Source of the DNA: Gemmatimonadales bacterium | Lineage (GTDB): Bacteria; Gemmatimonadota; Gemmatimonadetes; Gemmatimonadales; GWC2-71-9 | Length of the DNA stretch: 64,000 nucleotides | Direction: 5' to 3' | Assembly: GCA_036781225.1 (NCBI GenBank) | Contig: DAIQBJ010000001.1 | Location: forward strand, 1,389 to 65,388 | Shown here: positions 39,661-54,682 of the stretch, in pieces | Position numbering within the stretch: position 1 is the first letter of the stretch | Layout of the letters: each line of letters begins with the position of its first letter | Position numbers and translations under genes: made by a program | The notes under the pieces: generated by a model | Seen by the model: only the letters and a program-made list of their open reading frames with translations | Database searches by the model: none | What the model was told of the DNA's origin: nothing

Positions 39661-40458
39661 TCAGCGGCTCCCTACGCGCGGCTTCAGGAGTCCTTCCATG
39701 ACCGTGCGGACCTTGGCCTCTCGGATTGCCGGTTGCGAATAGAAGATGCGGCCGAGTGGGGCCGCGAAGACATGGATCATGCGGCTCCACCCGAGATACG
39801 CGAGAAAGCCGGACGCCAGTACGGCATGGGTCATCCAAAAGAACGAATAGGATCCGGTGTACGGAGCCCATCCGCGCAGCGCCTCGCCCATCCAGTAGCC
39901 GAGCAGGATCCAGCCGAAACCGGGCTGCGCCGGCACGTTGGCGAAATGGAGACCCTGGGCGATGAATCCCGTCAGAACAACAAGCAGCAGGAAGATCGTG
40001 CCGGGCGTGTCATTGAACTTTGCTTCATCCGTTCCTGCAGTCATCGCTCCGCGCACGAGCGCGATCAACAGTCCGACCAGAAGGACCATGCCCGACACGT
40101 TCAAGCCGAACTTGAGGAAGAGCCAGCCGGCGTTTCCGGTCATGAACGGCTCGGACGGCAGATATTTCGTGAGAAGCGCGGTCAGGATGTCGAAGACGAA
40201 GAGAACGGAAAACCCCCAGGAAATCAGCATATGGCGCGTCCACGGAAGGCGGCCGCGTAGCCGAATGCGTCGCTGAACGACGACCTCGTCGGCGTACGCC
40301 TGCGCGAGCGCGGCGGCGTCGACAGCGCCGAGCGGTATGAACCGACCACTGGCACCGAAGATCACTGCAAGCTTCGAGAAGAGGTTGCGATAGAGGCCGA
40401 TGAATAGGGCGCCGATGAAGAGCGGGATGAGGATCCAGAACAGCGCCATCAATGTCAT
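39661..40458 (-). CDS. Integral membrane subunit, NarI/DsrM-like (putative di-haem b quinol-interacting anchor)
   Basis: 265 aa with about 5-6 TM segments and His residues inside predicted helices (WTRHMLISWG, GLHFAN, WMTHAVL, RMIHVFAAP). Directly follows the Mo/FeS subunit genes. Confidence 0.5.
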   Translation of the reverse strand: MTLMALFWILIPLFIGALFIGLYRNLFSKLAVIFGASGRFIPLGAVDAAALAQAYADEVVVQRRIRLRGRLPWTRHMLISWGFSVLFVFDILTALLTKYLPSEPFMTGNAGWLFLKFGLNVSGMVLLVGLLIALVRGAMTAGTDEAKFNDTPGTIFLLLVVLTGFIAQGLHFANVPAQPGFGWILLGYWMGEALRGWAPYTGSYSFFWMTHAVLASGFLAYLGWSRMIHVFAAPLGRIFYSQPAIREAKVRTVMEGLLKPRVGSR

Positions 40459-40467
40459 CGCCGCCTC

Positions 40468-40980
40468 CTACCGGATCACGAACATCGCCGGCGCGGCCGG
40501 CCCACCGACACGCTCGCCGCCTGACTTGGCGGCGAGTCGTTCCAAGTCGGCCATCTCACCGCTGATGATCGCTTTGGTTGGACACACCTCCTCACACGCT
40601 CGCGGCAGCTCGGCCGGACGGTCCGCGCAGAACGTGCACTTCGACATCTTGCCCTCCGCGCCGAACTGAGGGACGCCGAACGGACAGGCCCAGAAGCAGA
40701 ACATGCAGCCAACGCACGTTGCCTGATCGACCAGGACGACTCCATCCGTGCGCTTGGTGATCGCGCCGACAGGACATGATTGCAGGCACGGCGCGTGGTC
40801 ACAGTGCAGGCACGGCATCGACAGGTTGCGTGTGCCGACATTCGGATAAACACCCGTCTCGATCTTCACGATTTGCCGCCACGAAACCGCGCCTGTTGCG
40901 TTCCAGGTCGCGCACGCAACTTCGCAGGCGTAACAGCCGGTGCATTTGCCGATGTCGAACAGCCAGCCTCGGCTCGCCAT
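40468..40980 (-). CDS. Four-cluster [4Fe-4S] ferredoxin subunit (DmsB/PsrB-like)
   Basis: 170 aa from the ATG at 40980 (MASRGWLFDIGKCTGC...). Four Cys groups: CTGCYACEVAC, CLHCDHAPCLQSCP, CVGCMFCFWACP, CTFCADR...ACEEVCP. No twin-arginine motif. Confidence 0.85.
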   Translation of the reverse strand: MASRGWLFDIGKCTGCYACEVACATWNATGAVSWRQIVKIETGVYPNVGTRNLSMPCLHCDHAPCLQSCPVGAITKRTDGVVLVDQATCVGCMFCFWACPFGVPQFGAEGKMSKCTFCADRPAELPRACEEVCPTKAIISGEMADLERLAAKSGGERVGGPAAPAMFVIR

Positions 40981-40985
40981 TGCGC

Positions 40986-43076
40986 CTACACCTTCCTGAC
41001 TCGGACTTTGCACTCGTTGTAGCCGATGCCGCCTGAAATCGGATTCACATTCGTCCCGAGAATCGGATTGATGTGGGTGCCGCGTCCTTTCGCAATGCCT
41101 TGCCAGTGTCCGAAGCCGTGACCATGGCGAACGCACACAACGCCAGGCCGGATGCCCGGTCGCACCTTCGCTCGAATCGTGACCGCCGCCTGCGGAGAGG
41201 CCACCTCGATGCGGTCTCCATCCTTGATTCCCAAGCGGGCGGCATCGCTCGCGTTGAGCTCGGCCCAGTTCTCGCTACGGATCTTCATGAGGATCGGATT
41301 GTTCTGCGTCGTGAGGTTGCAGTGCATCTCGAATTTGGTATTGATCAACTGGAATGGGTAGTCGGCGTCGGGAATCACACTGCGCTCTCGGTATTCCGGC
41401 AGCGCGTTGTACCCGTTCTTCGCGAACGCCTCGGACATCAGCTCGATCTTGCCGGTCGGGGTTGAAAAGCCCGACTGCCGGTACTTGTGATACTTCAGCT
41501 CGCCCGACCAGAATCCTGTTTTCTTCATCGTCTCGAGGTCAGTGGGCAAGCCACCGATGATCCGACGTCCCCACTCTTCCCACGAGTTCCACCGAAACAG
41601 GTCGCCATATCCCATCTTTTCGGCGAGCCCGCGGACGATCTCGTATACCGGCCGTGCCTCGTGGTATGGCGGCAGCGCCGGCACGCAGATAATCGCTTCC
41701 GGTGGCATGGCGAGGCTCTGACGGATCTCCGCACGCTCGTAGAACGACGCTTCGGGCAGCACGAACTCGCATTCTGCTGCCGTCTCGCTGAAGTACGTAT
41801 CGATCGCCACCGACAGCTCCAGCGCCTGGACCGCCTTGCGGTACAGCGCCGTGTTCGGCTCACTCATGACCGGATTCGTGCATTGGAAGAACAAGCCCTT
41901 CACGGGGTACGGCGTTCCTTCGAGAATCGCCTTCGGCAACAGTTGCGTTGGAAGATCAGGCGCGAGCGGGTAGCCCATGGCGACATGCAGCGGCGGGCGC
42001 GCGGGCTTGGTCTTGCGCTCGTCGGGAATCGTGAGCGGCGGCTGAAGTGGCGCCCAATCCTTGAGGATCAAATTGCCCGGCCCGTCGATCTGCCCGGTGA
42101 GCGCGTCGAGGATGTACACGAGCCGCGAGGCGTCGAGGCCGTTGGCGTAGTTTCCAAGTCCCTTGAATGTCTCGATGATCGCCGGGCGCGCGCTCGCGAA
42201 CTCGCGCGCCAGCCGCCGGATGGTATTGGCCGCGACACCGGTGATGCTCGCCGCCCATTCGGGCGTGTAGCCTCGCGCGATCACGTGCCGACAGAACTCG
42301 TCAAAGCCGTGAGTCCACTGACGGCAGAACGGCTCATCGTAGAGCCGCTCCTGCACGATGACGTGCGCCATTGCGAAGAGCAGCGCACCGTCTGTCCCCG
42401 GCGCGATCGGGATCCACTCGTTAGCCTTCTCCGCCGTGGCTGTGAAGGCCGGGTCGACCACGATGAGACGAGCGCCGTTTGAGACCGCGGCCAACAGACC
42501 CCGGCTCTCGTAGAGATTCTGATTGGCACCCAGCATGTTTATGCCGAGGAGCATCACGAACTTCGCGTTCTCGTAGTCGTGGACGGGAAAGACGTGCCCG
42601 AGCACCGTTAGCGCAGCCAGACGCCGATCCTGCTCGCACGCGGAAGTGTGCCCGTAATAGTTCGGGGTGCCGTAGCACTCGGTGAGAAAGAGCTGAGCGA
42701 AGACGCTGTTGGGATCGACGTGCCAGAGGTACGCCACGGCCTCCGGCCCGTACTTCGCCTTGATGTCAGTCAGCTTCCGTGCGATCTGCGTGAACGCTTC
42801 GTCCCAGCTGATGCGCTCGAACCGGTTTGGGCCGATGCGTCGCATCGGGTGCTTGAGGCGATTGTCGTCCTTCGCGAGCACGTGGCTCGCTTCGCCCTTC
42901 ACACAGCGTGAGCCCTTCGTGGACGCTCGTGTATTGCCGCGAACATAGACGACTTCGCCTCGGCGCGTGAAGACCTCCGTCGGACAGGTCCATGGGCATA
43001 CGTAGCAGATGCCAGGAGTCATCTCCGCGTCGCGGAGCCGTTCCAGCGTCTCCGTCGTGCCGGCCGTCTCCTTCAT
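40986..43076 (-). CDS. Molybdopterin (bis-MGD) oxidoreductase catalytic subunit, DMSO-reductase superfamily, no Tat signal
   Basis: 696 aa with an N-terminal [4Fe-4S] motif C-x2-C-x3-C-x26-C (ICYVCPWTCPTEV...GSRCVKGE) and a candidate Cys ligand in YGHTSACEQD. The N-terminus MKETAGTTETLERLRDAEM lacks RR. Confidence 0.8.
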   Translation of the reverse strand: MKETAGTTETLERLRDAEMTPGICYVCPWTCPTEVFTRRGEVVYVRGNTRASTKGSRCVKGEASHVLAKDDNRLKHPMRRIGPNRFERISWDEAFTQIARKLTDIKAKYGPEAVAYLWHVDPNSVFAQLFLTECYGTPNYYGHTSACEQDRRLAALTVLGHVFPVHDYENAKFVMLLGINMLGANQNLYESRGLLAAVSNGARLIVVDPAFTATAEKANEWIPIAPGTDGALLFAMAHVIVQERLYDEPFCRQWTHGFDEFCRHVIARGYTPEWAASITGVAANTIRRLAREFASARPAIIETFKGLGNYANGLDASRLVYILDALTGQIDGPGNLILKDWAPLQPPLTIPDERKTKPARPPLHVAMGYPLAPDLPTQLLPKAILEGTPYPVKGLFFQCTNPVMSEPNTALYRKAVQALELSVAIDTYFSETAAECEFVLPEASFYERAEIRQSLAMPPEAIICVPALPPYHEARPVYEIVRGLAEKMGYGDLFRWNSWEEWGRRIIGGLPTDLETMKKTGFWSGELKYHKYRQSGFSTPTGKIELMSEAFAKNGYNALPEYRERSVIPDADYPFQLINTKFEMHCNLTTQNNPILMKIRSENWAELNASDAARLGIKDGDRIEVASPQAAVTIRAKVRPGIRPGVVCVRHGHGFGHWQGIAKGRGTHINPILGTNVNPISGGIGYNECKVRVRKV

Positions 43077-47715: not shown

Positions 47716-48177
47716 CTACGCCCGCCGCTTCAGCAGACGCAGTATGGGGCGCTGTCGGACGGTCGTTGCGGCAGTCAGCGCGTTACATGCTGTGCCGCGC
47801 TGCTCATTCTCGAGCTTCATCAGAGTTCGCATCCGGCCGAGATCGTCACGACCGGCCTTGTCGTCAACGAGCTGCGGAGCCGCCTTCAAGAGCGCTCGGT
47901 AGACCGGGTGCGCCTGCGCCGATGCGGAAATGCCGTAGAAAACGAATGGGCCACGCCGGGTCGCGATCAGGAGCCCGCTCCGCCGCAGCGGACCGAGATG
48001 ACGTGAGATCTGGTATTGCGGCAGTCGAAGAATTGCGACGAGCTCGCAGACGCAGAGATCTGGGGTTCGAGAGAGCAGGCTCAGGATGCGAAGTCGTGTG
48101 TCGTCAGCGAGAAGCCGCAGAAACTTCGCGCCGTTGGTCGGCAGTTTCAGCGAGGGGGCATATGCACCGTTGCGCAT
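47716..48177 (-). CDS. arsR: ArsR/SmtB family metalloregulator with the CVC As(III)-site motif
   Basis: 153 aa; LRLLADDTRLRILSLLSRTPDLCVCELVAILRLPQYQISRHLGPLRRSGLL (ELCVC-type site) plus a ~50-aa C-terminal extension. Confidence 0.85.
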   Translation of the reverse strand: MRNGAYAPSLKLPTNGAKFLRLLADDTRLRILSLLSRTPDLCVCELVAILRLPQYQISRHLGPLRRSGLLIATRRGPFVFYGISASAQAHPVYRALLKAAPQLVDDKAGRDDLGRMRTLMKLENEQRGTACNALTAATTVRQRPILRLLKRRA

Positions 48178-48194: not shown

Positions 48195-48223
48195 AGCATA
48201 TGGACGCCGCCTACGTCTGTCAA
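48195..48223 (-). promoter_or_regulatory. Sigma-70-like promoter upstream of arsR
   Basis: On the minus strand: TTGACA (48223-48218), 17 nt, TATGCT (48200-48195), about 17 nt before the arsR ATG at 48177. Confidence 0.4.
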
Positions 48224-48278: not shown

Positions 48279-49178
48279 CTACCGAAGACGGGGCAAACGC
48301 AACGCGACTGCTCGGCAGAGTCCCCAGCCGATCACGGCACCGCACAATGGACCGAGGACATAGACAGTCAGCCACCCGCCTCGTGGGCCTGGAATCGCGA
48401 TCTCACCCCATCCGAGAAAGTACGAGACGAGCCGAGGCCCAAAATCGCGGGCGGGGTTAAGTCCCGCCTGGGTCAGCGGCGCAACCACCGAGATGATGGC
48501 CGCGACCGTCAAGCCAATGAACAGAGGCGTCGTTCCGGCTGAGGGCCTCGCCGAATTGCGATCTCGCGTCAAGATGCAAATGAGAAATGCGAGCATCGCG
48601 GTGCCGACGAGCTCTGCGAGGAAAGCCGAGAAGGGACCGACCACGCGCCACGCCTCTTCTGCGGTTCCGAAAATCGACGGATTCGGGAAGTACTCGCCGA
48701 AGACCATGGCCGACAGCTCGCTGCCAGGGCCGCCTCGCAGCAACCCGCGCTTTCGCTCGAACTCGATGATCGCTTCCGAAAACATGCTGTAGAGCACGAG
48801 CGAGGCCGTCGCAGCGCCGGCGGTTTGGGCAATCGCGTAAGGGATGACTCGCAGCCACGAAAACCCTTCGTAGATCGCCGCTGCGACAGTGATGGCCGGG
48901 TTGAGATGGGCCCCGGAGAGGGAAGCTGACGCATAAATGCCAAGGCTCACCCCGACTGCCCAAACGACCGCGACTTGCCACAGTCCGGCCTGCGCGCCGG
49001 TCGCGACCGCCGCATTGACCGCGCCCACTCCGAAAAATACGAGGATGAACGTCCCGACGTATTCCGCAAGAAGCGCCGGTCCCAGCGGCATCGGCGGTGG
49101 CACGCCGCCGCGTACCTGTTCCGTTGGAAATGACTCGATCTCGGTTCGGATCGTGCTGCCGTCCTCGCGTGGCGTCAC
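48279..49178 (-). CDS. Aquaglyceroporin (GlpF/AqpS-like MIP channel)
   Basis: Two NPA boxes in GlpF-like contexts (SLSGAHLNPAITVAAA; PLTQAGLNPARDFGPRL). The GTG at 49178 overlaps the upstream stop (GTGA); the alternative ATG at 49091 gives MPLGPALLAEY... Confidence 0.85.
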   Translation of the reverse strand: MTPREDGSTIRTEIESFPTEQVRGGVPPPMPLGPALLAEYVGTFILVFFGVGAVNAAVATGAQAGLWQVAVVWAVGVSLGIYASASLSGAHLNPAITVAAAIYEGFSWLRVIPYAIAQTAGAATASLVLYSMFSEAIIEFERKRGLLRGGPGSELSAMVFGEYFPNPSIFGTAEEAWRVVGPFSAFLAELVGTAMLAFLICILTRDRNSARPSAGTTPLFIGLTVAAIISVVAPLTQAGLNPARDFGPRLVSYFLGWGEIAIPGPRGGWLTVYVLGPLCGAVIGWGLCRAVALRLPRLR

Positions 49179-50182
49179 GGTTTCATTGGTCTCCGAAGAC
49201 TGGCGGGAATATTCTTGCTTGCGTTGAAGAGTGCAACGGTCGCGTCGGCCTCGTTGAAGTCCGCGTCCGCAAGATTAGCCTGTTCGAAGTTCGTCGACTG
49301 CAACTGTGCTCGACGGAAGTCGGCCCGAACAAGCGTGGCTCCCACAAGTTGGGTGTTGTTCAGTGTTGCCGCCGCAAAACTCGTCGAGGAAAAGTCCGCG
49401 CCGTAGGCAATCGCCCACGCCAGCGATGCCTTCGAGAAGTTGGCACCTGAAGCTCGTACCCAACTGAGGTCCGACCAACCAAGATCAGCGTCCTTGAATA
49501 TCGCGTCGGTCAGTACAGCCTCCCGAAACGAGACGCTCTTGAGATTTGCCCCGGTGAAGTTCGCCTTCACGAGGGTCGCTCCCGAGAGTCTCGCCCCTGC
49601 CTGACCGTATTCGGCCAGGCGGCCGGCGCCAAGCTCGGCTGACACGAGATTCGCGCTTGTTAAGTCGGCCTGACTGAGGTCCGCCGCAATGAGAGTGGCT
49701 CCTTCGAAGTTCCCGCCCACCAACCTCGCGCGGGCGAGCTTCGCCCCGGGAAGGAAAGCCTTCTTCAAGGTAGCGCCCTCGAGTCGCGCGCTGTCGAGCA
49801 CCGCCCTGGTCAGATCAGTCCCCTCGAGGTTCGCTGTCCGGAGGTCTGCTCGAGTCAAGTCAGCGGCGGCAAGGCGAGCCCCCGAAAAGTTCGCGCCATA
49901 CGCGCGGACGTCGCGCAGATACGACTCTCGCAAATCGGCATCCCGTAGGCTCGCACGCGTGAGATTGGCGCCGACAAGCGTGGCGCCCGTGAGCGTTGCG
50001 CCGTCGAGGGTCGCGCCGGTGAGGTCAGCGCCCCGGAGGTCAGCTCCGGTGAGGTCGAGCCGCGAGAGGTTTCGTCCGGCGAGCTTGCCTTTTGCGGCCA
50101 GCACATCGTCCAGCGGCGCGGCAATCACTGTAGCGCCTGAAAGGACCAAGATCAGGCTGACGAAAGCGATGAGTGTCTTCAT
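49175..50182 (-). CDS. Secreted pentapeptide-repeat protein
   Basis: 335 aa with signal peptide MKTLIAFVSLILVLSGATVIAAP, then about 60 consecutive A(D/N)LxX pentapeptides (LTGADLRGADLTGATLDGATLTGATLVGANL...). Both ends overlap their neighbours by 4 nt. Confidence 0.85.
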   Translation of the reverse strand: MKTLIAFVSLILVLSGATVIAAPLDDVLAAKGKLAGRNLSRLDLTGADLRGADLTGATLDGATLTGATLVGANLTRASLRDADLRESYLRDVRAYGANFSGARLAAADLTRADLRTANLEGTDLTRAVLDSARLEGATLKKAFLPGAKLARARLVGGNFEGATLIAADLSQADLTSANLVSAELGAGRLAEYGQAGARLSGATLVKANFTGANLKSVSFREAVLTDAIFKDADLGWSDLSWVRASGANFSKASLAWAIAYGADFSSTSFAAATLNNTQLVGATLVRADFRRAQLQSTNFEQANLADADFNEADATVALFNASKNIPASLRRPMKP

Positions 50183-52686
50183 CGCGCGACGTTTTGGGGA
50201 AGGAACGAGACGATCTTAGCGATTTCCGGCTGCGGTCCTATCCGGCGGATCGCCGCCCAGGCGCCCTTGTAGTACGGAATCGTTGTGGTGGGGTCGACGT
50301 GGTCCGAGACGAGCTCCCCGGCGGCGCCCCGGGGTTGCCCGAACAACATGAACGTGTGACCGCGTTTGACCGAGTCCGTAATGATCGCCATCGCGCGAAC
50401 GCGGCCAACGTCGTTGGTCAGCTCGACCAGGTCGCCTGAAGACACGCCGAGCTTTGAGGCATCAGCAGGATGGATTTCAAGATGCGGCATCGGATTGTGA
50501 TCGTTATAGAACGGAACATGCTGATGGTGATAGAGCGTCTGCCATATGTGGTTCGTGCGCCCGTTGTTCACCCAAAACGGATATTGCGCACGTTGCGCAG
50601 CGACTTTTGCGGCGTACCCGGGCCAGGGTTGTGGGGCCGGGATGAAACGGGCTTTGCCCGAGGGAGTTTGAAATCGACCGCGCTCGTGCATGCGAACCGT
50701 GCCGACAGGAACGCCGTTCACGATGCGCGTTGGCGTTTGAATTCCGTTGGTCCCGAGCCGGCGAAGCAGGTCATAGGTGACGCCCGCGTAGCCCTCGATC
50801 GGATCACTTCCATCGCCCTTGAATTGATAGCGCGCGTGGATGAAAACGTCCTCCTCGGTGCGCCAATCGAAGTCAAGGAAGCGGTTAGCCATCAGGGGAT
50901 TGTTGTCATCGAGATAGAGCGCGCGGATCCGGCGCGCGAAACGGGCCATGATTTCCCAGTCCGGCAGCGCCTCACCAGGCGGGTCCATGAAACGCTGATA
51001 GAGGCGTAATCGTCGCTCTCCGTTGATCGACGTGAGGTTGGTCTCGCCCCACTGCGCGGCGGGCAACACAAGATGCGCGAGCCGCGTCGTCGCGGTCATA
51101 TATATGTCCTGCGCAATGATGAACATCCCGCCTTGCTTCAGCGCGTCGACGATTCTGGCGACGCGCTCTCCTACGGGCCGTCCCTCCGTCCTATCCAGCA
51201 CGGCCTGCACCGGCGCGCCGCGCTCCTTGAAAGCCGCTTCCATGGCCTCGGCGTTGAGCGTCGTGAGCACGGGATTGCACCCGCCGATCCAGTACGCCTT
51301 CACCTCGCCACGCCGCACCGCCTCATCGACATTCAGGGCCGGGCGACCACCCGGATACGCAGGCCGAACGTAGCCTTCCTGGTGTCCGCCCATTCGGCTG
51401 CATCCAGTGCCTGGCTTGCCTACGTTGCCGGTGAGTAGGGCGAGGTCCACGATGGCGGCGATATTTTCGTAATTCTTGAGTCCCCAGATGAGGCCCTTTT
51501 CGTAATGAAGCAAGGTGCGGCGTCGCGATCCGTCAGCCTTCGGCGCACCGACCCACTCTGCGGCCTTATAGATTTGTGCGGCCGGAATGCCAGCGATCTT
51601 CGCGGCTTCGTTTACGACGTCCGCGAGCGGACGATCAACAGCAAGGGTCGAGCGCTGATACGCTTCGAACGTCTGCCACTCAGTGTGATCGCGAATGAAA
51701 CCGACGTCGTGCCATCGACGATCGAGGATGACGCGCGAGATCGCATTGAGCAACGCGATGTCGGCGCCCGGCTCGATCTGCAAATGAAGGGCGCGATCCG
51801 GCGTGCCCGCCGCTTCTGCCGTGGCGACCGTCATCGTGCGTCGAGGATCGACAATGATTATCCGGCCCGGCGCGACGGATTCCGTGCCGAGGATCGCGCG
51901 TTTGCGCTCCAGCGTTGAGCCGTTGAGGTTCGGCACCATGTGGACAAGGAAGTAATTCGTCTGTGTCTCATATGCATTGCTGCCGACGAGAACGATCGTG
52001 TCGGCCAGCTCAGCGTCGGCGTATGCGTTCGTGAGAGCGGCGACCCCGGCATCGCCGGCGGCATGGACCTCGCTGTTGTATGCGGGGCGGTTATGAATGG
52101 AAGCCGTCTTGGTCCCGACGCCGCTGAAGAAGAACCGCCCGACCGCCCAGTTCGCCTCGAAACCACCACCACCACCACCGTGGTCGAAGAACTTCATTCC
52201 GACGGCATCCGGTCCCCAGCGATCGATAACAGCTTTGACCACGCGTGCGCCGAGATCTACGGCCGCATCCCACGTCACGGGCACATGCTGTCCAGCCCGC
52301 GAGAGCAGTGGTTTCGCCAACCGAGCCTTTGTGGGTCGCTCGGGTGAAAAGAGTGTCGGAGCCTGGCCGCCGCCGCGAACCGAAGAGAGTCCCTCATTCA
52401 CTACACAGGCTTTGTCGGGAGTGATGACGACGTTGTACTGGCGGCCGTCACGATCCGTAACGGTCGTATGCATGGCCGTGGAGATCCAGTCGCCGAGCGG
52501 CGGCAACGGCTTCGTGTAGTCGGCGCGCAGAGCATTCCGGTCCGGCTCCGGCCCACCATCGCGGCCGACGGGCCATTTGAACACCTTGTAGCCGCAGCCG
52601 ACGATGCAAAACTGACAGACGGTGTCGAATCGCTGCGCTTCCGTCGGCGGCAGCGGCACGCGATCCGCAGGCGGCGTAATGCTCAC
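50179..52686 (-). CDS. aioA: Arsenite oxidase large (molybdopterin, [3Fe-4S]) subunit
   Basis: 835 aa with the N-terminal AioA signature CQFCIVGCGYKVFKW, paired with an upstream Tat-Rieske small subunit. GTG start at 52686. Confidence 0.9.
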   Translation of the reverse strand: MSITPPADRVPLPPTEAQRFDTVCQFCIVGCGYKVFKWPVGRDGGPEPDRNALRADYTKPLPPLGDWISTAMHTTVTDRDGRQYNVVITPDKACVVNEGLSSVRGGGQAPTLFSPERPTKARLAKPLLSRAGQHVPVTWDAAVDLGARVVKAVIDRWGPDAVGMKFFDHGGGGGGFEANWAVGRFFFSGVGTKTASIHNRPAYNSEVHAAGDAGVAALTNAYADAELADTIVLVGSNAYETQTNYFLVHMVPNLNGSTLERKRAILGTESVAPGRIIIVDPRRTMTVATAEAAGTPDRALHLQIEPGADIALLNAISRVILDRRWHDVGFIRDHTEWQTFEAYQRSTLAVDRPLADVVNEAAKIAGIPAAQIYKAAEWVGAPKADGSRRRTLLHYEKGLIWGLKNYENIAAIVDLALLTGNVGKPGTGCSRMGGHQEGYVRPAYPGGRPALNVDEAVRRGEVKAYWIGGCNPVLTTLNAEAMEAAFKERGAPVQAVLDRTEGRPVGERVARIVDALKQGGMFIIAQDIYMTATTRLAHLVLPAAQWGETNLTSINGERRLRLYQRFMDPPGEALPDWEIMARFARRIRALYLDDNNPLMANRFLDFDWRTEEDVFIHARYQFKGDGSDPIEGYAGVTYDLLRRLGTNGIQTPTRIVNGVPVGTVRMHERGRFQTPSGKARFIPAPQPWPGYAAKVAAQRAQYPFWVNNGRTNHIWQTLYHHQHVPFYNDHNPMPHLEIHPADASKLGVSSGDLVELTNDVGRVRAMAIITDSVKRGHTFMLFGQPRGAAGELVSDHVDPTTTIPYYKGAWAAIRRIGPQPEIAKIVSFLPQNVAR

Positions 52687-52695
52687 CGGCAGTAA

Positions 52696-53184
52696 CTACA
52701 CGAGGTTGGTGTGGCGCCCGTAGATGAGGCCGCTCACACCGACAGCTTCGACGACCCCATTGTTCACACGAAGTTCGATTTGCGGCAGCTGTTGACTGGC
52801 CTGCCCGATGATCAACGCGCCCGCTTTCGCAGGATCGAAGGTGCTCCAGTGGCACGGACAGATAAACATCTTCCGCTCGGGTTTGAACGCCACCGGACAG
52901 CCTTTGTGCGTACACAGGGTTGAGAATGCGACGATGTCACGCGCGGGGCCGACACCGTTCGTTGCCGCTTCGGCCAGTCGGAGCAACACGGCTGGAGAGC
53001 CTGCGTCCGGATAGGCAAAGACGATAGCGGCGCCGGGACCAACGTCCTTGAGCGGTGCAACCGCGACGACGGGATAGTGCGATGGATTCGCGGCGTCTGT
53101 TCTCGGAACGAAGGACTGCGACGCTAGGACGCCGGCGACGCCCGTCGATCCCAGTTTGATGAAATGCCGACGAGTCGGCATCAC
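52696..53184 (-). CDS. aioB: Arsenite oxidase small (Rieske) subunit with Tat signal
   Basis: Tat motif TRRHFIKLG and Rieske motifs CTHKGCPV...CPCHWSTF. Start is the GTG at 53184 or the ATG at 53181, after GAGGGGGG. Confidence 0.9.
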   Translation of the reverse strand: MMPTRRHFIKLGSTGVAGVLASQSFVPRTDAANPSHYPVVAVAPLKDVGPGAAIVFAYPDAGSPAVLLRLAEAATNGVGPARDIVAFSTLCTHKGCPVAFKPERKMFICPCHWSTFDPAKAGALIIGQASQQLPQIELRVNNGVVEAVGVSGLIYGRHTNLV

Positions 53185-53296
53185 GCCCCCCTCACGTCAA
53201 AAATGGATTGTATCCAGCGGTAGCCGTTTTGAGGTGCGCCCATGATCACCCTACGACGGCTTGAGCGTCCCGTACTTAACGGCTCGTGGATGCTGA

Positions 53297-53340
53297 TGTC
53301 AAGTGATATATATTCTTCGTATATTCTTGCAGGAGGCGTT
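53297..53340. promoter_or_regulatory. AT-rich divergent control region (direct repeats, -35 hexamer, SD)
   Basis: TATATTCTT occurs twice in tandem register 11 bp apart (53309-53317, 53320-53328). On the aioB strand a perfect TTGACA (53302-53297) abuts the repeats. AGGAGG (53331-53336) precedes the plus-strand ATG at 53341. Confidence 0.45.
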
Positions 53341-53535
53341 ATGCCCATACGGATGGAGGAGTTCGAAAAGCTCGCAGCCGCAAAGCCGGCGGGAACGTCG
53401 CTCGCTGAGATCCTCGGTGTTGGCAATGTCTACTGGAGCGGCAGCCTTACGGACTACATCTATATGGTGCCCGAGGTGATGGGCAAACCGGCCGCGATCG
53501 TCCCGGCTTCGTTGAAGACTCGCTTCGGTGGCTAG
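53341..53535 (+). CDS. Small hypothetical protein (64 aa) ending in Gly-Gly
   Basis: AGGAGG-N4-ATG, with high third-position GC by eye. The peptide is MPIRMEEFEKLAAAKPAGTSLAEILGVGNVYWSG...ASLKTRFGG*. The track start at 53242 lies in the AT-rich region and is unlikely. Confidence 0.5.
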   Translation: MPIRMEEFEKLAAAKPAGTSLAEILGVGNVYWSGSLTDYIYMVPEVMGKPAAIVPASLKTRFGG

Positions 53536-53852
53536 CCGCCCATGAACTGACCGAGCAGCATGATCCGATCACCTGGCCTGACTGGTGAGTCGAGATCATG
53601 CGTCACGCCAAGAATGGCGTCATTCACGATGATTTCGACGTGTTCACCCAGCTCATTGCCATGCCAGAGAGCCGCCTGAAGGTCTGGATAGCGGGCACTG
53701 AGCCCGCGGAGCACTGACCGTATCGTCGACTTCTCAGTCCAAGGCTCGTCGAGGACACGGCGACCAGAGCCGTCGCCACCAATGAACTTCGTGATCCACG
53801 AATGAACTTCGACGGGGACGACTTGCGTTGTCCCCGTAGCGTTAGCTGCCAT
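53532..53852 (-). CDS. MoaD/ThiS-like beta-grasp (ubiquitin-like sulfur-carrier type) protein
   Basis: 106 aa from the ATG at 53852, with C-terminal ...VRPGDRIMLLGQFMGG*. The length and the xGDxhxhhxxxxGG tail are typical of the family. Confidence 0.65.
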   Translation of the reverse strand: MAANATGTTQVVPVEVHSWITKFIGGDGSGRRVLDEPWTEKSTIRSVLRGLSARYPDLQAALWHGNELGEHVEIIVNDAILGVTHDLDSPVRPGDRIMLLGQFMGG

Positions 53853-53856
53853 CGCG

Positions 53857-54336
53857 TTACGAACTAGCGCAGCACGAACCGCCGCTGGCAACTACGGTGA
53901 GCCCCTTCTTGAGCGGCAAATGCTGTGTGTCGGTGGCGCAGGACGCACCATCCTCAATATCGTGATTGAGGACATAGACCTCCCACTCCACGCCATCGGG
54001 ATCCTGGACCCAGAACTTGTCCTGGTTGGCGTGGCAGCAATTCACGCTGAACTCCTCTCGAACAGGCAAGCCGATCGCCTTGACGCGCTCCATTTCGCGG
54101 ACCACGATCGCCTGCGATTCGACCTGGATGCCCATGTGATCGACGTGGCCGCGGCCTTCGGACGGTCGCGCTTCGGAGAGCGCGAGATTCAAGGGGCCAA
54201 ACGGCGGAAGAAACTTCACGTAGCCGGGCTTCACCTTCACCGGTGCGACACCGAGAAACTTCTCGTAGAACGCCCGGCTCTTGGTGAGGTCGGACACCGT
54301 CATGTGGACATGGACCTTAGGCGCTTCGACGCTCAT
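53857..54336 (-). CDS. arsI: ArsI/CadI-type VOC-fold C-As lyase (dioxygenase)
   Basis: 159 aa; FYEKFLGVAPVKVKPGYVKFL, HMGIQVES and the vicinal-Cys substrate motif VNCCHANQDKFWVQDPDGVEWEVY, plus a Cys-rich tail GGSCCASS. Confidence 0.8.
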   Translation of the reverse strand: MSVEAPKVHVHMTVSDLTKSRAFYEKFLGVAPVKVKPGYVKFLPPFGPLNLALSEARPSEGRGHVDHMGIQVESQAIVVREMERVKAIGLPVREEFSVNCCHANQDKFWVQDPDGVEWEVYVLNHDIEDGASCATDTQHLPLKKGLTVVASGGSCCASS

Positions 54337-54346
54337 CGTGGGCCTC

Positions 54347-54682
54347 CTAGCAACAGGCTGTCAGGATACGAACGAGTTCCGAGACCATTTCGGCTCGAGG
54401 AGAGTAGTAGATGTATCGCTCCTCGCGGCGGCTTTGAACCAGTCCGGCGCGGCGCAGGATATCGAGATGGTGCGACAGCGTCGGGCCAGGAATCTCCAGT
54501 TGCGCCTGAATGTCTCCAGCGGCCACTTCCGCCTTAGCCTTCACAAGAAAGAAGAAGATCTGCAACCGCGACTGGTGCGCGAGCGCCTTGAACGCTTCAA
54601 CATGCTCGTCGCGCGCCTGGAGTCGACTCAGTGGAAGTGTCTTCACGTTTTCAAATATATTGAAATGTAGGGCGTCTGTCAA
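54347..54682 (-). CDS. arsR: ArsR/SmtB family regulator with C-terminal Cys pair
   Basis: FKALAHQSRLQIFFFL...AGDIQAQLEIPGPTLSHHLDILRRAGLV...LTACC*. The track start at 54682 is a TTG; a GTG at 54646 is an alternative. Confidence 0.8.
   Translation of the reverse strand: MTDALHFNIFENVKTLPLSRLQARDEHVEAFKALAHQSRLQIFFFLVKAKAEVAAGDIQAQLEIPGPTLSHHLDILRRAGLVQSRREERYIYYSPRAEMVSELVRILTACC

Follow-up and report, generated by a model that had tools for sequence, protein, structure and literature searches.

A pentapeptide-repeat protein (PRP), predicted to be exported, is co-inherited with the two subunits of an arsenite oxidase (AioBA) and with a GlpF-like channel (MIP) in soil, marine, and freshwater bacteria. 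As judged from sequence, aioB-aioA-PRP-MIP is a four-gene module that defines a distinct arsenite-oxidase clade, and the PRP looks like an undescribed partner of the enzyme. Arsenite oxidase is among the best studied metalloid enzymes, and its accepted gene set comprises aioBA together with aioXSR, a cytochrome c gene, and moeA. The AioA clade described here is large, occurs widely in the environment, and is essentially uncultured; these usual partners are absent from it, and a secreted PRP and a GlpF-like channel are always present.

The locus

The window, i.e., the whole stretch of 64,000 nucleotides that was analyzed, contains the following features, given with the evidence for each:

54347-54682, minus strand: second ArsR, upstream of aioB (NF033788)
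53857-54336, minus strand: ArsI/CadI-type C-As lyase, upstream of aioB (NF041414, 129 bits against a cut-off of 116)
52696-53184, minus strand: aioB, Rieske small subunit (TIGR02694, 160 bits against a cut-off of 95.65, and translation)
50179-52686, minus strand: aioA, molybdopterin large subunit, PRP-associated AioA clade (TIGR02693, 997 bits against a cut-off of 359)
49175-50182, minus strand: PRP gene, 335 aa (ORF, Pfam, register analysis, and public gene calls)
50120-50182, minus strand: predicted PRP export signal, aa 1-21, with MK, a 19-residue hydrophobic core, and VIA/A (sequence features)
49220-50089, minus strand: PRP repeat region, 58 pentapeptides, aa 32-321 (register analysis, AlphaFold2 model, and Foldseek)
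49850-49939, minus strand: PRP surface patch 1, aa 82-111 (ortholog conservation)
49595-49636, minus strand: PRP irregular units, aa 183-196, with G185, and P194 in orthologs (conservation, register, and pLDDT)
49400-49474, minus strand: PRP aromatic patch 2, aa 237-261 (ortholog conservation)
49178-49219, minus strand: PRP C-terminal tail, aa 322-335 (alignment and model)
48279-49178, minus strand: GlpF-like MIP channel gene (Pfam and TIGR profiles, PDB relatives)
47716-48177, minus strand: ArsR/SmtB regulator, downstream of the channel gene (profile matches)

The sequence-only reading had described an ORF whose ATG overlaps the aioA stop and whose own stop overlaps the GTG of the channel gene, and this can be read directly in the sequence: the aioA TGA and the PRP ATG share four nucleotides (gcgcgATGAag), as do the PRP TGA and the MIP GTG (ccGTGAcg). 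The identical 335-aa product, with identical overlaps, was called independently in public annotations of ENA and Logan contigs. Overlaps of this kind with both neighbors, present in more than half of the loci, are characteristic of translational coupling. The identity given to the two neighbors was confirmed by profile, for aioA with the TIGR02693 score listed above and for the channel with 175 bits to TIGR00861.

ArsR regulators are found in the window in place of aioXSR. The upstream arsenic context (ArsR plus ArsI/CadI, 53857-54682) is kept in Rokubacteria-type loci, and the downstream ArsR/SmtB gene, which has a promoter-like site of its own (48223-48195), is confined to them. The promoter and terminator scan gave consensus-level hints only, in counts no higher than the shuffled expectation, and an Rfam search around the operon retrieved no significant match to riboswitches or to RNA elements of another kind.

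A distinct clade of arsenite oxidases

Both AioA and AioB of the window exceed the arsenite-oxidase equivalog cut-offs. AioB has a twin-arginine signal (MMPTRRHFIKLG, with TRRHFIK in the translation) and the cluster motifs CTHKGC and CPCH, and AioA has the 3Fe-4S cysteine motif CQFCIVGC. When AioA was aligned to the solved structures 8rtm_A and 1g8k_A, to which it is ca. 48% identical, the segments IHNRPAYNSE.H and RMGGHQ were found to be conserved, including the equivalents of the substrate-site residues H195, E203, R419, and H423 (Alcaligenes faecalis numbering). The PRP-associated AioAs are monophyletic and fall on the AioA side of the IdrA outgroup. Their identity to characterized AioAs is 41 to 48% over the clade; in the comparison in which characterized AioAs were 47% identical among themselves, it was 41 to 46%. 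The plasmid AioAs of cultured strains are all at most 46% identical to the clade. An iodate reductase identity for the window AioBA was rejected on synteny and on the identity of AioA to the large subunit of an idr locus (L158), 35% versus 41 to 48% to AioAs. Across 76 loci, there was no conserved cluster of aioX/S/R, c-type cytochrome, or moeA ORFs, and ORFs with CxxCH were rare and unconserved. By profile, the locus codes for AioBA, yet it is no ordinary aio cluster: it belongs to a distinct and nearly all-uncultured clade without aioXSR or cytochrome c and with the PRP and MIP genes throughout.

Synteny and distribution of the module

A survey of the neighborhoods of aioA homologs, proposed together with the original observation, found the PRP association to be conserved across several phyla and classes. 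The order aioB-aioA-PRP-MIP is present in ca. 140 independent loci of Rokubacteria/Methylomirabilota and of Alpha-, Beta-, and Gammaproteobacteria, nearly all of them MAGs or metagenome contigs. The Rokubacteria are from soil, and the Proteobacteria from marine and freshwater samples. Among genome loci with an AioA of at least 62% identity and downstream sequence present, the PRP and then the MIP gene follow in 65 out of 65. An additional scan of metagenome contigs, independent of aioA, with the family motif ADLRE[AS]Y[LF]R recovered 80 loci; aioA is directly upstream in 74 of them, and MIP is directly downstream in 66 of the 67 that have room for it. Only two of the loci flanked on both sides lack aioA and MIP, and both code for generic PRPs (34 to 35%). 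The MIP gene adjoins that of the PRP in at least 125 loci. The PRP is absent from the canonical aio loci L070 and L157, from the idr locus L158, and from the sister Anaerolineae locus L058.

The stop of aioA and the start of the PRP gene overlap by 4 nt in 83 of 137 loci (61%) and lie within 20 nt in 47 more, and the same 4-nt overlap joins the PRP stop to the MIP start in 69 of 128 (54%). Tight PRP-MIP coupling is not universal, since a gammaproteobacterial subgroup has spacers of 84 to 336 nt. One apparent PRP-MIP fusion (L010) was discarded as a homopolymer indel artifact, in which a surplus C within a CCC run abolishes the stop; once corrected, the frame ends in LPASLKESR plus stop, with a TAATG overlap.

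The distances of PRP and AioA correlate in a mirror-tree comparison (r = 0.81; partial r = 0.66 given MIP), and the PRP-MIP partial correlation is weak (0.22); these values are weak evidence, as correlation is expected for any co-inherited genes, and they favor AioA partly because it is the longest and least noisy of the proteins. Searches of the protein collection for orthologs, with the PRP, a 55-sequence alignment, and a 66-aa family-specific sub-alignment as queries and also exhaustively over the representatives, were swamped by long generic or length-matched short PRPs. The exact PRPs of the window and of seven orthologs are absent from this collection, where AioA and MIP are present, and all the PRP ortholog evidence thus comes from DNA loci.

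Export, fold, and conserved surfaces of the PRP

The PRP N terminus consists of MK, TLIAFVSLILVLSGATVIA, and A-P, i.e., a basic n-region, a 19-residue h-region, and a V-I-A/A site. Signal-like N termini are found in 59 of 65 orthologs, with AxA/Q sites, four lipobox variants, and eight Tat-like RR variants, so that the kind of signal is conserved and its sequence is not. On these features, the protein is predicted to be exported, in agreement with the Sec-type signal peptide noticed at the outset.

The Pfam family Pentapeptide (PF00805) matches the protein in eight stretches (E = 1.3e-58), and PF13599 and PF13576 match too. Register analysis identified 58 consecutive pentapeptides in a single unbroken frame (aa 32 to 321), and over the whole protein the canonical i-2 (A/S/T/G/V/C) and i (L/F/I/V/M) residues occupy 54 of 66 five-residue units; the initial description of about 60 uninterrupted repeats was therefore accurate. 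With at least eight contiguous A(D/N)LXX pentapeptides, the protein belongs to the PF00805 superfamily. The AlphaFold2 model, built on an alignment of generic PRPs (an earlier single-sequence model was poor in the C-terminal third), has a mean pLDDT of 88 and one strand per pentapeptide from ca. aa 37 to 323. The structure prediction that had been suggested as a check thus returned a beta-helix, predicted to be continuous over ca. 14.5 coils, which would be about 70 Å long if each coil rises by 4.8 Å. All significant Foldseek matches of this model in the PDB are PRPs, the best ones being Qnr/MfpA/AlbG/McbG, HetL, and Np275/276. The lowest confidence along the helix (pLDDT 71 to 77, aa 181 to 200) spans the conserved irregular units, probably a bulge or loop. 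The export-signal segment was modeled as an N-terminal helix with low confidence, and the tail, with the family consensus N-A-A-x-N-V-P-x-x-L (NASKNIPASLRRPMKP in the window), has a short modeled helix at 327 to 330.

Orthologs align without gaps across ca. 290 aa at 29 to 62% identity, with a fixed number of repeats, and their dN/dS values of 0.09 to 0.19 indicate purifying selection. Overall charge is a different matter: the mature proteins have a pI from 4.4 to 10.3 and a net charge from -15 to +8. A general anion-binding surface, one of the functions first put forward, is disfavored because this charge is not conserved. There is no Cys in the mature window protein and none or one in most orthologs, and thiol-based binding of As(III) was rejected for this reason. 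No redox-cofactor motifs were found in the PRP. Two surface patches are conserved. In patch 1, D83, R85, E86, Y88, R90, D108, T110, and R111 occupy outward repeat positions on two adjacent faces and are either invariant or reach 90% conservation or more, in sets of 55 and of 85 non-redundant orthologs; its family motif is the one used in the metagenome scan and is alone sufficient to retrieve true orthologs from metagenomes. Patch 2 (the invariant W241 plus F249, W256, and Y260) faces the opposite side, ca. 7 coils away. Taken together, the two patches have a high content of Arg, Asp, Tyr, and Trp, as interface hot spots typically do, although the conserved Trp, Tyr, and Arg could instead serve folding, capping, or self-association.

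The window MIP (PF00230, E = 5e-44) has E. coli GlpF as its best solved relative (164 bits in the PDB) and contains two NPA motifs (NPA and NPARDFGP). Of the GlpF ar/R filter (W48-G191-F200-R206), the window MIP retains W48 and R206 and has Ala at the position of F200. Its periplasmic loop C, a clade-specific insertion of 11 aa included, ranks with the best conserved parts of the channel.

A possible link between channel and oxidase

With no cofactor-type residues and no conserved net charge, the PRP most likely acts via periplasmic protein-protein contacts. We infer an exported accessory protein or adaptor whose binding partner would be AioBA, the channel, or both, a reading supported by the synteny, the gene overlaps, the absence elsewhere, export, sequence constraint, the patches, loop C, the co-variation, and the precedent of PedD (see below). 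More specifically, and with somewhat less than an even chance in our estimation, this rigid beta-helical accessory would hold AioBA in place at the periplasmic opening of the channel or close to it, so that As(OH)3 would be oxidized at once. The charged patch (D83/R85/E86/Y88/R90/D108/T110/R111) and the aromatic patch (W241/W256/Y260) would then be two separate interfaces, and As(OH)3 would be met by the enzyme whether leaving or approaching the passive channel. Such prompt oxidation would keep periplasmic As(III) low and make a bidirectional channel effectively one-way. A stricter version, with the PRP as an obligate third component that docks Tat-exported AioBA onto a dedicated aquaglyceroporin in a channel-oxidase assembly that rectifies the As(OH)3 pore, seems unlikely.

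The contacts of the PRP could also be restricted to one of its neighbors. It might serve AioBA alone, stabilizing or anchoring it after Tat export or organizing its contact with the electron acceptor, the channel being merely co-selected. The strongest co-variation of the PRP is indeed with AioA, whose stop its start codon overlaps in most loci, and in a module without cytochrome c or aioXSR some other factor may organize electron transfer or localization, a role similar to that suspected, by analogy, for PedD with PQQ alcohol dehydrogenases. However, MIP is linked as strictly as AioA, with a conserved clade-specific insertion in its periplasmic loop, the function of PedD is itself uncharacterized, and the PRP lacks redox-cofactor motifs, all of which leaves this option on the unlikely side. 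Conversely, the PRP might dock on the GlpF-like tetramer from the periplasmic side and gate or restrict As(OH)3 entry, leaving enough for sensing by cytoplasmic ArsR, with the oxidase as no direct partner. The stop/start overlap with MIP, the conserved loop C and its insertion, and the cytoplasmic ArsR-type sensors that replace AioXSR in the window would all fit, and there are precedents for extracytoplasmic PRP modules that go with transporters (the luminal domain of SV2, and RfrA in the case of Mn uptake). Gating appears quite unlikely nonetheless, given the weak partial correlation with MIP, the larger PRP-MIP spacers of some lineages, and the restriction of ArsR to Rokubacteria-type loci.

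Other explanations change the ligand or the substrate. In 33 proteobacterial loci, a distant MTHFR-like gene is located directly upstream of aioB, and near the proteobacterial cassettes there are genes for BHMT, an MtgC-like corrinoid protein, an MtaA/CmuA-family methyltransferase, a methyl-THF:corrinoid methyltransferase, and RACo. Since many of these cassettes are found among methyl-transfer and not ars genes, the substrate could differ from inorganic arsenite: the clade might oxidize another neutral metalloid, hydroxylated or methylated and able to pass aquaglyceroporins (Sb(OH)3, methylarsenite, or products of onium-compound demethylation), the PRP keeping the same adaptor role. The ArsI C-As lyase upstream in the window points the same way, and no cultured and assayed member of the clade is among the recovered loci. 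Against this, AioA conserves all four substrate-site residues, scores far above the TIGR02693 cut-off, and belongs to a clade as close to characterized AioAs as these are to each other; besides, the window context is ArsR/ArsI/ArsR, and the methyl-transfer genes vary in position and orientation, which makes another substrate decidedly unlikely. Patch 1, rich in Arg, Tyr, and Thr, might itself bind a metal ion, or else an oxyanion or metalloid (arsenate, antimonate, or phosphate), which would make the PRP a sink, shuttle, or sensor in the periplasm; a lumenal PRP was crystallized with Ca2+ ions bound along one of its faces, according to a paper that cites the structure. This is very improbable when the acidic D83 and E86 interleaved with the arginines, the unconserved overall charge, and the lack of Cys to coordinate As(III) are considered, and a 290-aa rod would be extravagant for one small site. 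Finally, a cytoplasmic, gyrase-protecting DNA mimic of the Qnr/MfpA type, in the operon by chance, is close to refuted. The fold family is the same, as the Foldseek matches to Qnr, AlbG, and MfpA illustrate, but the NCBIfam matches are weak (74.6 bits to Qnr NF033086 with a cut-off of 240; 60.5 bits to MfpA with a cut-off of 360), there is an export signal, the surface is not consistently acidic, and the linkage to aioA and MIP is strict. In addition, the Qnr and MfpA structures have ca. 8 to 10 coils, compared to the predicted 14.5.

Whatever the precise contacts, surveys that use aioA as a marker gene lump two differently organized systems. The PRP superfamily has more than 100,000 representative sequences, and we know of almost no functions assigned to it beyond gyrase protection; the genomic context of the PRP-linked AioA clade is sharply defined, and a function can be tested in it. 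It also raises the testable idea of a passive channel physically coupled to a periplasmic oxidase. If the channel-oxidase assembly were true, it would be the first case in which a periplasmic pentapeptide-repeat protein is assigned a molecular role. It would also be a new way of organizing arsenic detoxification or energy capture, one that occurs widely among uncultured bacteria of soil, fresh water, and the sea.

Comparison with known systems

In canonical aio loci (the Pseudosulfitobacter plasmid L157 and Pseudomonas L070), as in the window, the gene for a Rieske AioB with a Tat signal precedes that for a Mo-bisPGD/3Fe-4S AioA, and the product is a periplasmic enzyme. Unlike these aioXSR-aioBA-cytC-moeA loci, the clade of the window has an obligatory downstream PRP and GlpF-like channel. 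The idrABP1P2 island of an Azonexus plasmid (L158) also codes for a periplasmic AioBA-like pair of Rieske and molybdopterin subunits. However, idr loci carry two cytochrome c peroxidases, idrP1 and idrP2 (Reyes-Umana 2021), both present in L158, and no cytochrome c peroxidase was found beside aioA in any locus of the PRP clade.

No paper in the literature searched links a PRP to arsenite oxidase, and to that extent the module does lie outside known arsenite-oxidase models, as the sequence-only reading maintained. A periplasmic PRP beside a periplasmic oxidoreductase is not without precedent, though, since the secreted or lumenal PedD, YjbI, and Rfr32/TL15 are already known. PedD (PP_2673/PA1981) is a predicted extracytoplasmic PRP of the ped/exa cluster for PQQ alcohol dehydrogenases. 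Its gene is co-regulated with the adjoining periplasmic dehydrogenase, which feeds a c-type cytochrome, and its truncation impairs growth on the substrates of this neighboring enzyme. The likeness to the window PRP is one of context type only: the enzyme of PedD is a PQQ alcohol dehydrogenase, of which there is none in the window, and there is no channel gene. YjbI of Caulobacter crescentus, a secreted outer-membrane PRP, is defined by two conserved pairs of Cys on the flanks of its helix and by a charged tail at the C terminus, which passes through the outer membrane (PMC12864828). It shares with the window PRP a signal peptide and a quadrilateral beta-helix in the cell envelope, but the latter and its orthologs are essentially without Cys and have a different tail.

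Cytoplasmic DNA mimics, to which the sequence-only reading assigned most characterized bacterial PRPs, are represented by the Qnr/MfpA/AlbG/McbG type. These share the pentapeptide-repeat fold with the window PRP and are cytoplasmic, acidic, and gyrase-binding, whereas the latter has an export signal, a charge that varies among orthologs, and a much greater length. Rfr32 (Cyanothece), At2g44920/TL15 (Arabidopsis), and the SV2 luminal domain, the last one a PRP attached to a transporter, are non-cytoplasmic PRPs at energy-transducing or transport membranes; they differ in having ca. 5 coils, disulfide-stabilized caps, and no link to a molybdoenzyme or MIP. As for the channel, a close parallel in arrangement is AqpS-ArsC of Sinorhizobium meliloti, in which an aquaglyceroporin within an arsenic operon provides a downhill route for As(III) and is paired with a cytoplasmic reductase. 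The window channel is paired instead with a periplasmic oxidase and a PRP.

Conservation of the cassette

A module of four genes, coding for arsenite oxidase (Rieske AioB and molybdopterin AioA), a putatively exported pentapeptide-repeat protein (PRP) and a GlpF-like channel (MIP), is inherited together across phyla. When one genome per GTDB species was scanned with aioA, 76 loci were recovered; apart from L070, of a Pseudomonas isolate, all are from MAGs, and the closest come from Methylomirabilia/Rokuibacteriota. In all 65 loci where AioA identity is 62% or more and downstream sequence is available, a PRP ortholog comes directly after aioA, with MIP following wherever the contig extends. By record title, PRP-bearing loci belong to Rokubacteria, Alphaproteobacteria (many; Hyphomicrobiales, Rhodospirillales, Magnetovibrio, Paracoccaceae, and Methyloligellaceae), Burkholderiales and other Betaproteobacteria, and Gammaproteobacteria, labels taken from the MAG records, in which binning errors are possible. 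Both PRP and MIP are absent from an Anaerolineae locus (L058; AioA identity, 54%), a sister branch in the neighbor-joining tree, from the canonical Pseudomonas locus L070 (45 to 46%), and from a canonical aioXSR-aioBA plasmid locus. Of the 82 AioA homologs found on plasmids from cultured bacteria, none exceeds 46% identity.

As an independent test, metagenome contigs were scanned for ADLRE[AS]Y[LF]R, a motif specific to the PRP. This gave 80 loci, with aioA right before the PRP in 74 and MIP right after it in 66 of the 67 that had room for it. Three loci lack an adjoining aioA only because the PRP is at the contig start, two (L155 and L156) have neither aioA nor MIP and carry generic PRPs (34 to 35%), and the last exception (L153) is a 1.4-kb fragment. 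The association that the sequence-only reading had noticed in the window is thus conserved in both surveys. The aioA stop and the in-frame PRP start overlap by 4 nt in 83/137 loci and are no more than 20 nt apart in 47 more; PRP stop and MIP start overlap by 4 nt in 69/128. An apparent 646-aa PRP-MIP fusion in one long-read MAG (L010:11440-11470) was rejected, as it comes from a homopolymer with one C too many; once this is removed, the PRP ends in LPASLKESR and a stop, with a TAATG stop/start overlap.

The window gene and its neighborhood

The genes around the PRP, all on the minus strand, are, from upstream to downstream, USP, MFS, ArsR, ArsI/CadI C-As lyase, a MoaD/ThiS-like ORF, aioB, aioA, PRP, GlpF-like MIP, a second ArsR, and a branched-chain amino acid ABC transporter. 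The main features are as follows.

54654-54682, minus strand: near-consensus sigma-70-like promoter, TTGACA-17-TATATT, before one arsR
53532-53891, minus strand: MoaD/ThiS-like ORF, 119 aa, overlapping the end of the ArsI gene
53242-53535, plus strand: small ORF between the MoaD-like gene and aioB, divergent from aioB
aioB, minus strand: TIGR02694, 160 bits
aioA, minus strand: TIGR02693, 997 bits
49175-50182, minus strand: PRP, 335 aa
48279-49178, minus strand: MIP, with periplasmic loop C at residues ca. 150 to 200
48195-48223, minus strand: near-consensus sigma-70-like promoter, TTGACA-17-TATGCT, before the other arsR
39661-43076, minus strand: second molybdoenzyme set, ca. 5 kb downstream of the cassette

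In the DNA, an ATGA overlap joins the PRP start to the aioA stop, and a GTGA overlap joins its stop to the first start of the MIP ORF. The protein matches Pfam PF00805 (Pentapeptide; E = 1.3e-58), and register analysis found 58 successive five-residue units with zero frame breaks between residues 32 and 321 (ca. 14.5 coils). Its N terminus reads as a basic n-region followed by a hydrophobic core of 19 residues and a V-I-A/A site. The identical product of 335 aa, with the same overlaps, appears among public gene calls for independent contigs from ENA and Logan. Since all these agree, the initial description of the ORF (335 aa, both 4-nt overlaps, about 60 unbroken repeats, and a signal-like N terminus) is correct. 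Public annotation lists no Pfam entry for the called gene, and homology searches did not retrieve the family from large protein databases, where its neighbors AioA and MIP are present and named; missing protein-level matches should not be taken as rarity.

The MoaD/ThiS-like ORF is conserved at 66 to 94% in the loci with window-like ars neighbors (Rokubacteria type), and it has no public gene call, callers placing small opposite-strand ORFs there instead. The small divergent ORF, with a conserved core of ca. 64 aa, no Pfam family, and a 64-aa gene in public assemblies, is kept in all Rokubacteria-type loci (62 to 80% at the protein level); its position before aioB implies that the four-gene cassette has its own promoter. 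The promoter-like site at 54654-54682 overlaps the listed start codon (TTG) of the arsR ORF; the true start is probably further downstream, public calls giving 99 aa. The second molybdoenzyme set comprises a PhsA/Psr-like catalytic subunit (696 aa, no obvious Tat signal), a DmsB-like 4Fe-4S subunit, and a NarI-like membrane subunit, and a related DmsB-like ORF was found within 3 to 5 kb of the cassette in seven marine loci.

Enzyme, neighbors, and channel

The window AioA aligns with solved A. faecalis-type enzymes at ca. 48% identity and keeps the equivalents of the substrate-site residues H195, E203, R419, and H423. Inspection of the neighborhood found no CxxCH proteins near aioA, cytochrome c peroxidases included. 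In the reference idr locus, from an Azonexus plasmid, the gene order is ccp-ccp-Rieske-large subunit, and this large subunit is only 35% identical to the window AioA. With the criterion for IdrA, the iodate reductase large subunit, taken from Reyes-Umana et al. (2021), an IdrA identity was rejected on the missing peroxidase and this low identity; together with the substrate-site residues, they place the window enzyme, by sequence, on the AioA side.

In 33 proteobacterial loci (L041:6381-7322, plus strand, and 32 others), aioB is directly preceded, on its own strand, by a distant MTHFR-like gene. Near the cassette in Proteobacteria, in variable arrangement, there are also a betaine-homocysteine methyltransferase (BHMT), an MtgC-like corrinoid protein, an MtaA/CmuA-family methyltransferase, a methyl-THF:corrinoid methyltransferase, RACo, and CobW (examples of methyl-transfer genes: L047:2632-3804, L028:1966-2676, L031:2612-4543, L021:3208-4227, and L050:7598-8641). 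This association is absent from the window, which has ArsR/ArsI/ArsR instead. The association hints at a link of the oxidase clade to methyl-group metabolism, possibly of methylated or onium arsenicals, and its natural substrate may not always be inorganic arsenite.

The closest solved relative of the window MIP is E. coli GlpF, of which the filter residues W48 and R206 are kept and F200 aligns with Ala. Relative to GlpF, loop C has an 11-aa insertion, IFGTAEEAWRV, 80 to 90% conserved across the clade; the call rests on comparison with the solved GlpF. In 48 nonredundant orthologs, few parts of the MIP are as conserved as loop C with its insertion.

Constraint, export, and surface of the PRP

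Against the window PRP, 55 orthologs are 29 to 62% identical and essentially gap-free over ca. 290 aa, so repeat number is fixed, indicating a length constraint; this is unusual among repeat proteins. Compared with four relatives, dN/dS is 0.09 to 0.19 (AioA, 0.03 to 0.07; MIP, 0.04 to 0.12), and the PRP evolves ca. 2.5 times faster than AioA or MIP.

Signal-like N termini are found in 59/65 orthologs, the others being start codon ambiguities, with typical cleavage sites read as AxA/Q; lipoboxes are seen in four betaproteobacterial-type orthologs and Tat-like RR motifs in eight. That a single orthologous protein carries three kinds of export signal is a strong argument that it lies outside the cytoplasm. 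The lipobox N termini (e.g., LLLTAC and LILIAC, with no Asp at +2) occur in some Burkholderiales-type loci (L021, L033, L059, and L062), where the PRP may be a membrane-tethered, possibly outer membrane, lipoprotein rather than a soluble periplasmic protein.

Mature PRPs have essentially zero cysteine, which disfavors thiol binding of As(III), and neither pI (4.4 to 10.3) nor net charge (-15 to +8) is conserved among orthologs, which disfavors DNA mimicry and, in its general form, the anion-binding surface once considered for this protein. Scoring of outward-facing residues over 85 nonredundant orthologs found a charged patch (D83, R85, E86, Y88, R90, D108, T110, and R111) on two adjacent faces of coils 3 and 4 and an aromatic patch (W241, F249, W256, and Y260) on opposite faces ca. 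seven coils beyond. The structure prediction suggested from the sequence-only reading was made for the PRP alone: the AlphaFold2 model, built on a generic-PRP alignment, is predicted as a single continuous beta-helix (mean pLDDT, 88) with a lower-confidence bulge at residues 181 to 200. Foldseek against the PDB retrieved PRPs only (HetL, designed solenoids, Np275/276, Qnr, AlbG, and MfpA).

Possible function and comparison with known systems

The family combines export signals, a constrained length, and two conserved surface patches, and we infer that it works through protein-protein contact with AioBA and/or the channel. The reading that we favor, though tentatively, is that the PRP is in some general sense an adaptor; a full channel-oxidase assembly involving it seems unlikely. 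Such an adaptor would place the oxidase at the channel mouth, and the passive As(OH)3 pore would thereby become effectively one-way. The PRP might instead be an accessory factor of the oxidase only, a reading supported by the fact that it co-varies more strongly with AioA (r = 0.81; partial, 0.66), a statistic that carries little weight. It might also gate the channel or bind a small ligand.

Secreted PRPs already have precedents. The gene for PedD (PP_2673/PA1981), an uncharacterized PRP predicted to be extracytoplasmic, neighbors those for the periplasmic PQQ alcohol dehydrogenase PedE/ExaA and cytochrome c550 and is regulated along with them; Caulobacter has YjbI, an outer membrane PRP that is secreted and has Cys pairs; Rfr32 and At2g44920 are lumenal; and SV2 has a luminal PRP domain on a transporter. 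No description of an aioBA-PRP-MIP cassette was found in the literature on pentapeptide repeats with arsenic, aioA, aquaporin, or glpF, in agreement with the initial view that the PRP lies outside known arsenite oxidase models. Unlike the window PRP, none of these PRPs is linked to an arsenite oxidase or a MIP. The cassette is best viewed as an arsenite oxidase module with two undescribed obligatory partners, the MIP and a PRP from a fold family in which hardly any functions have been assigned.
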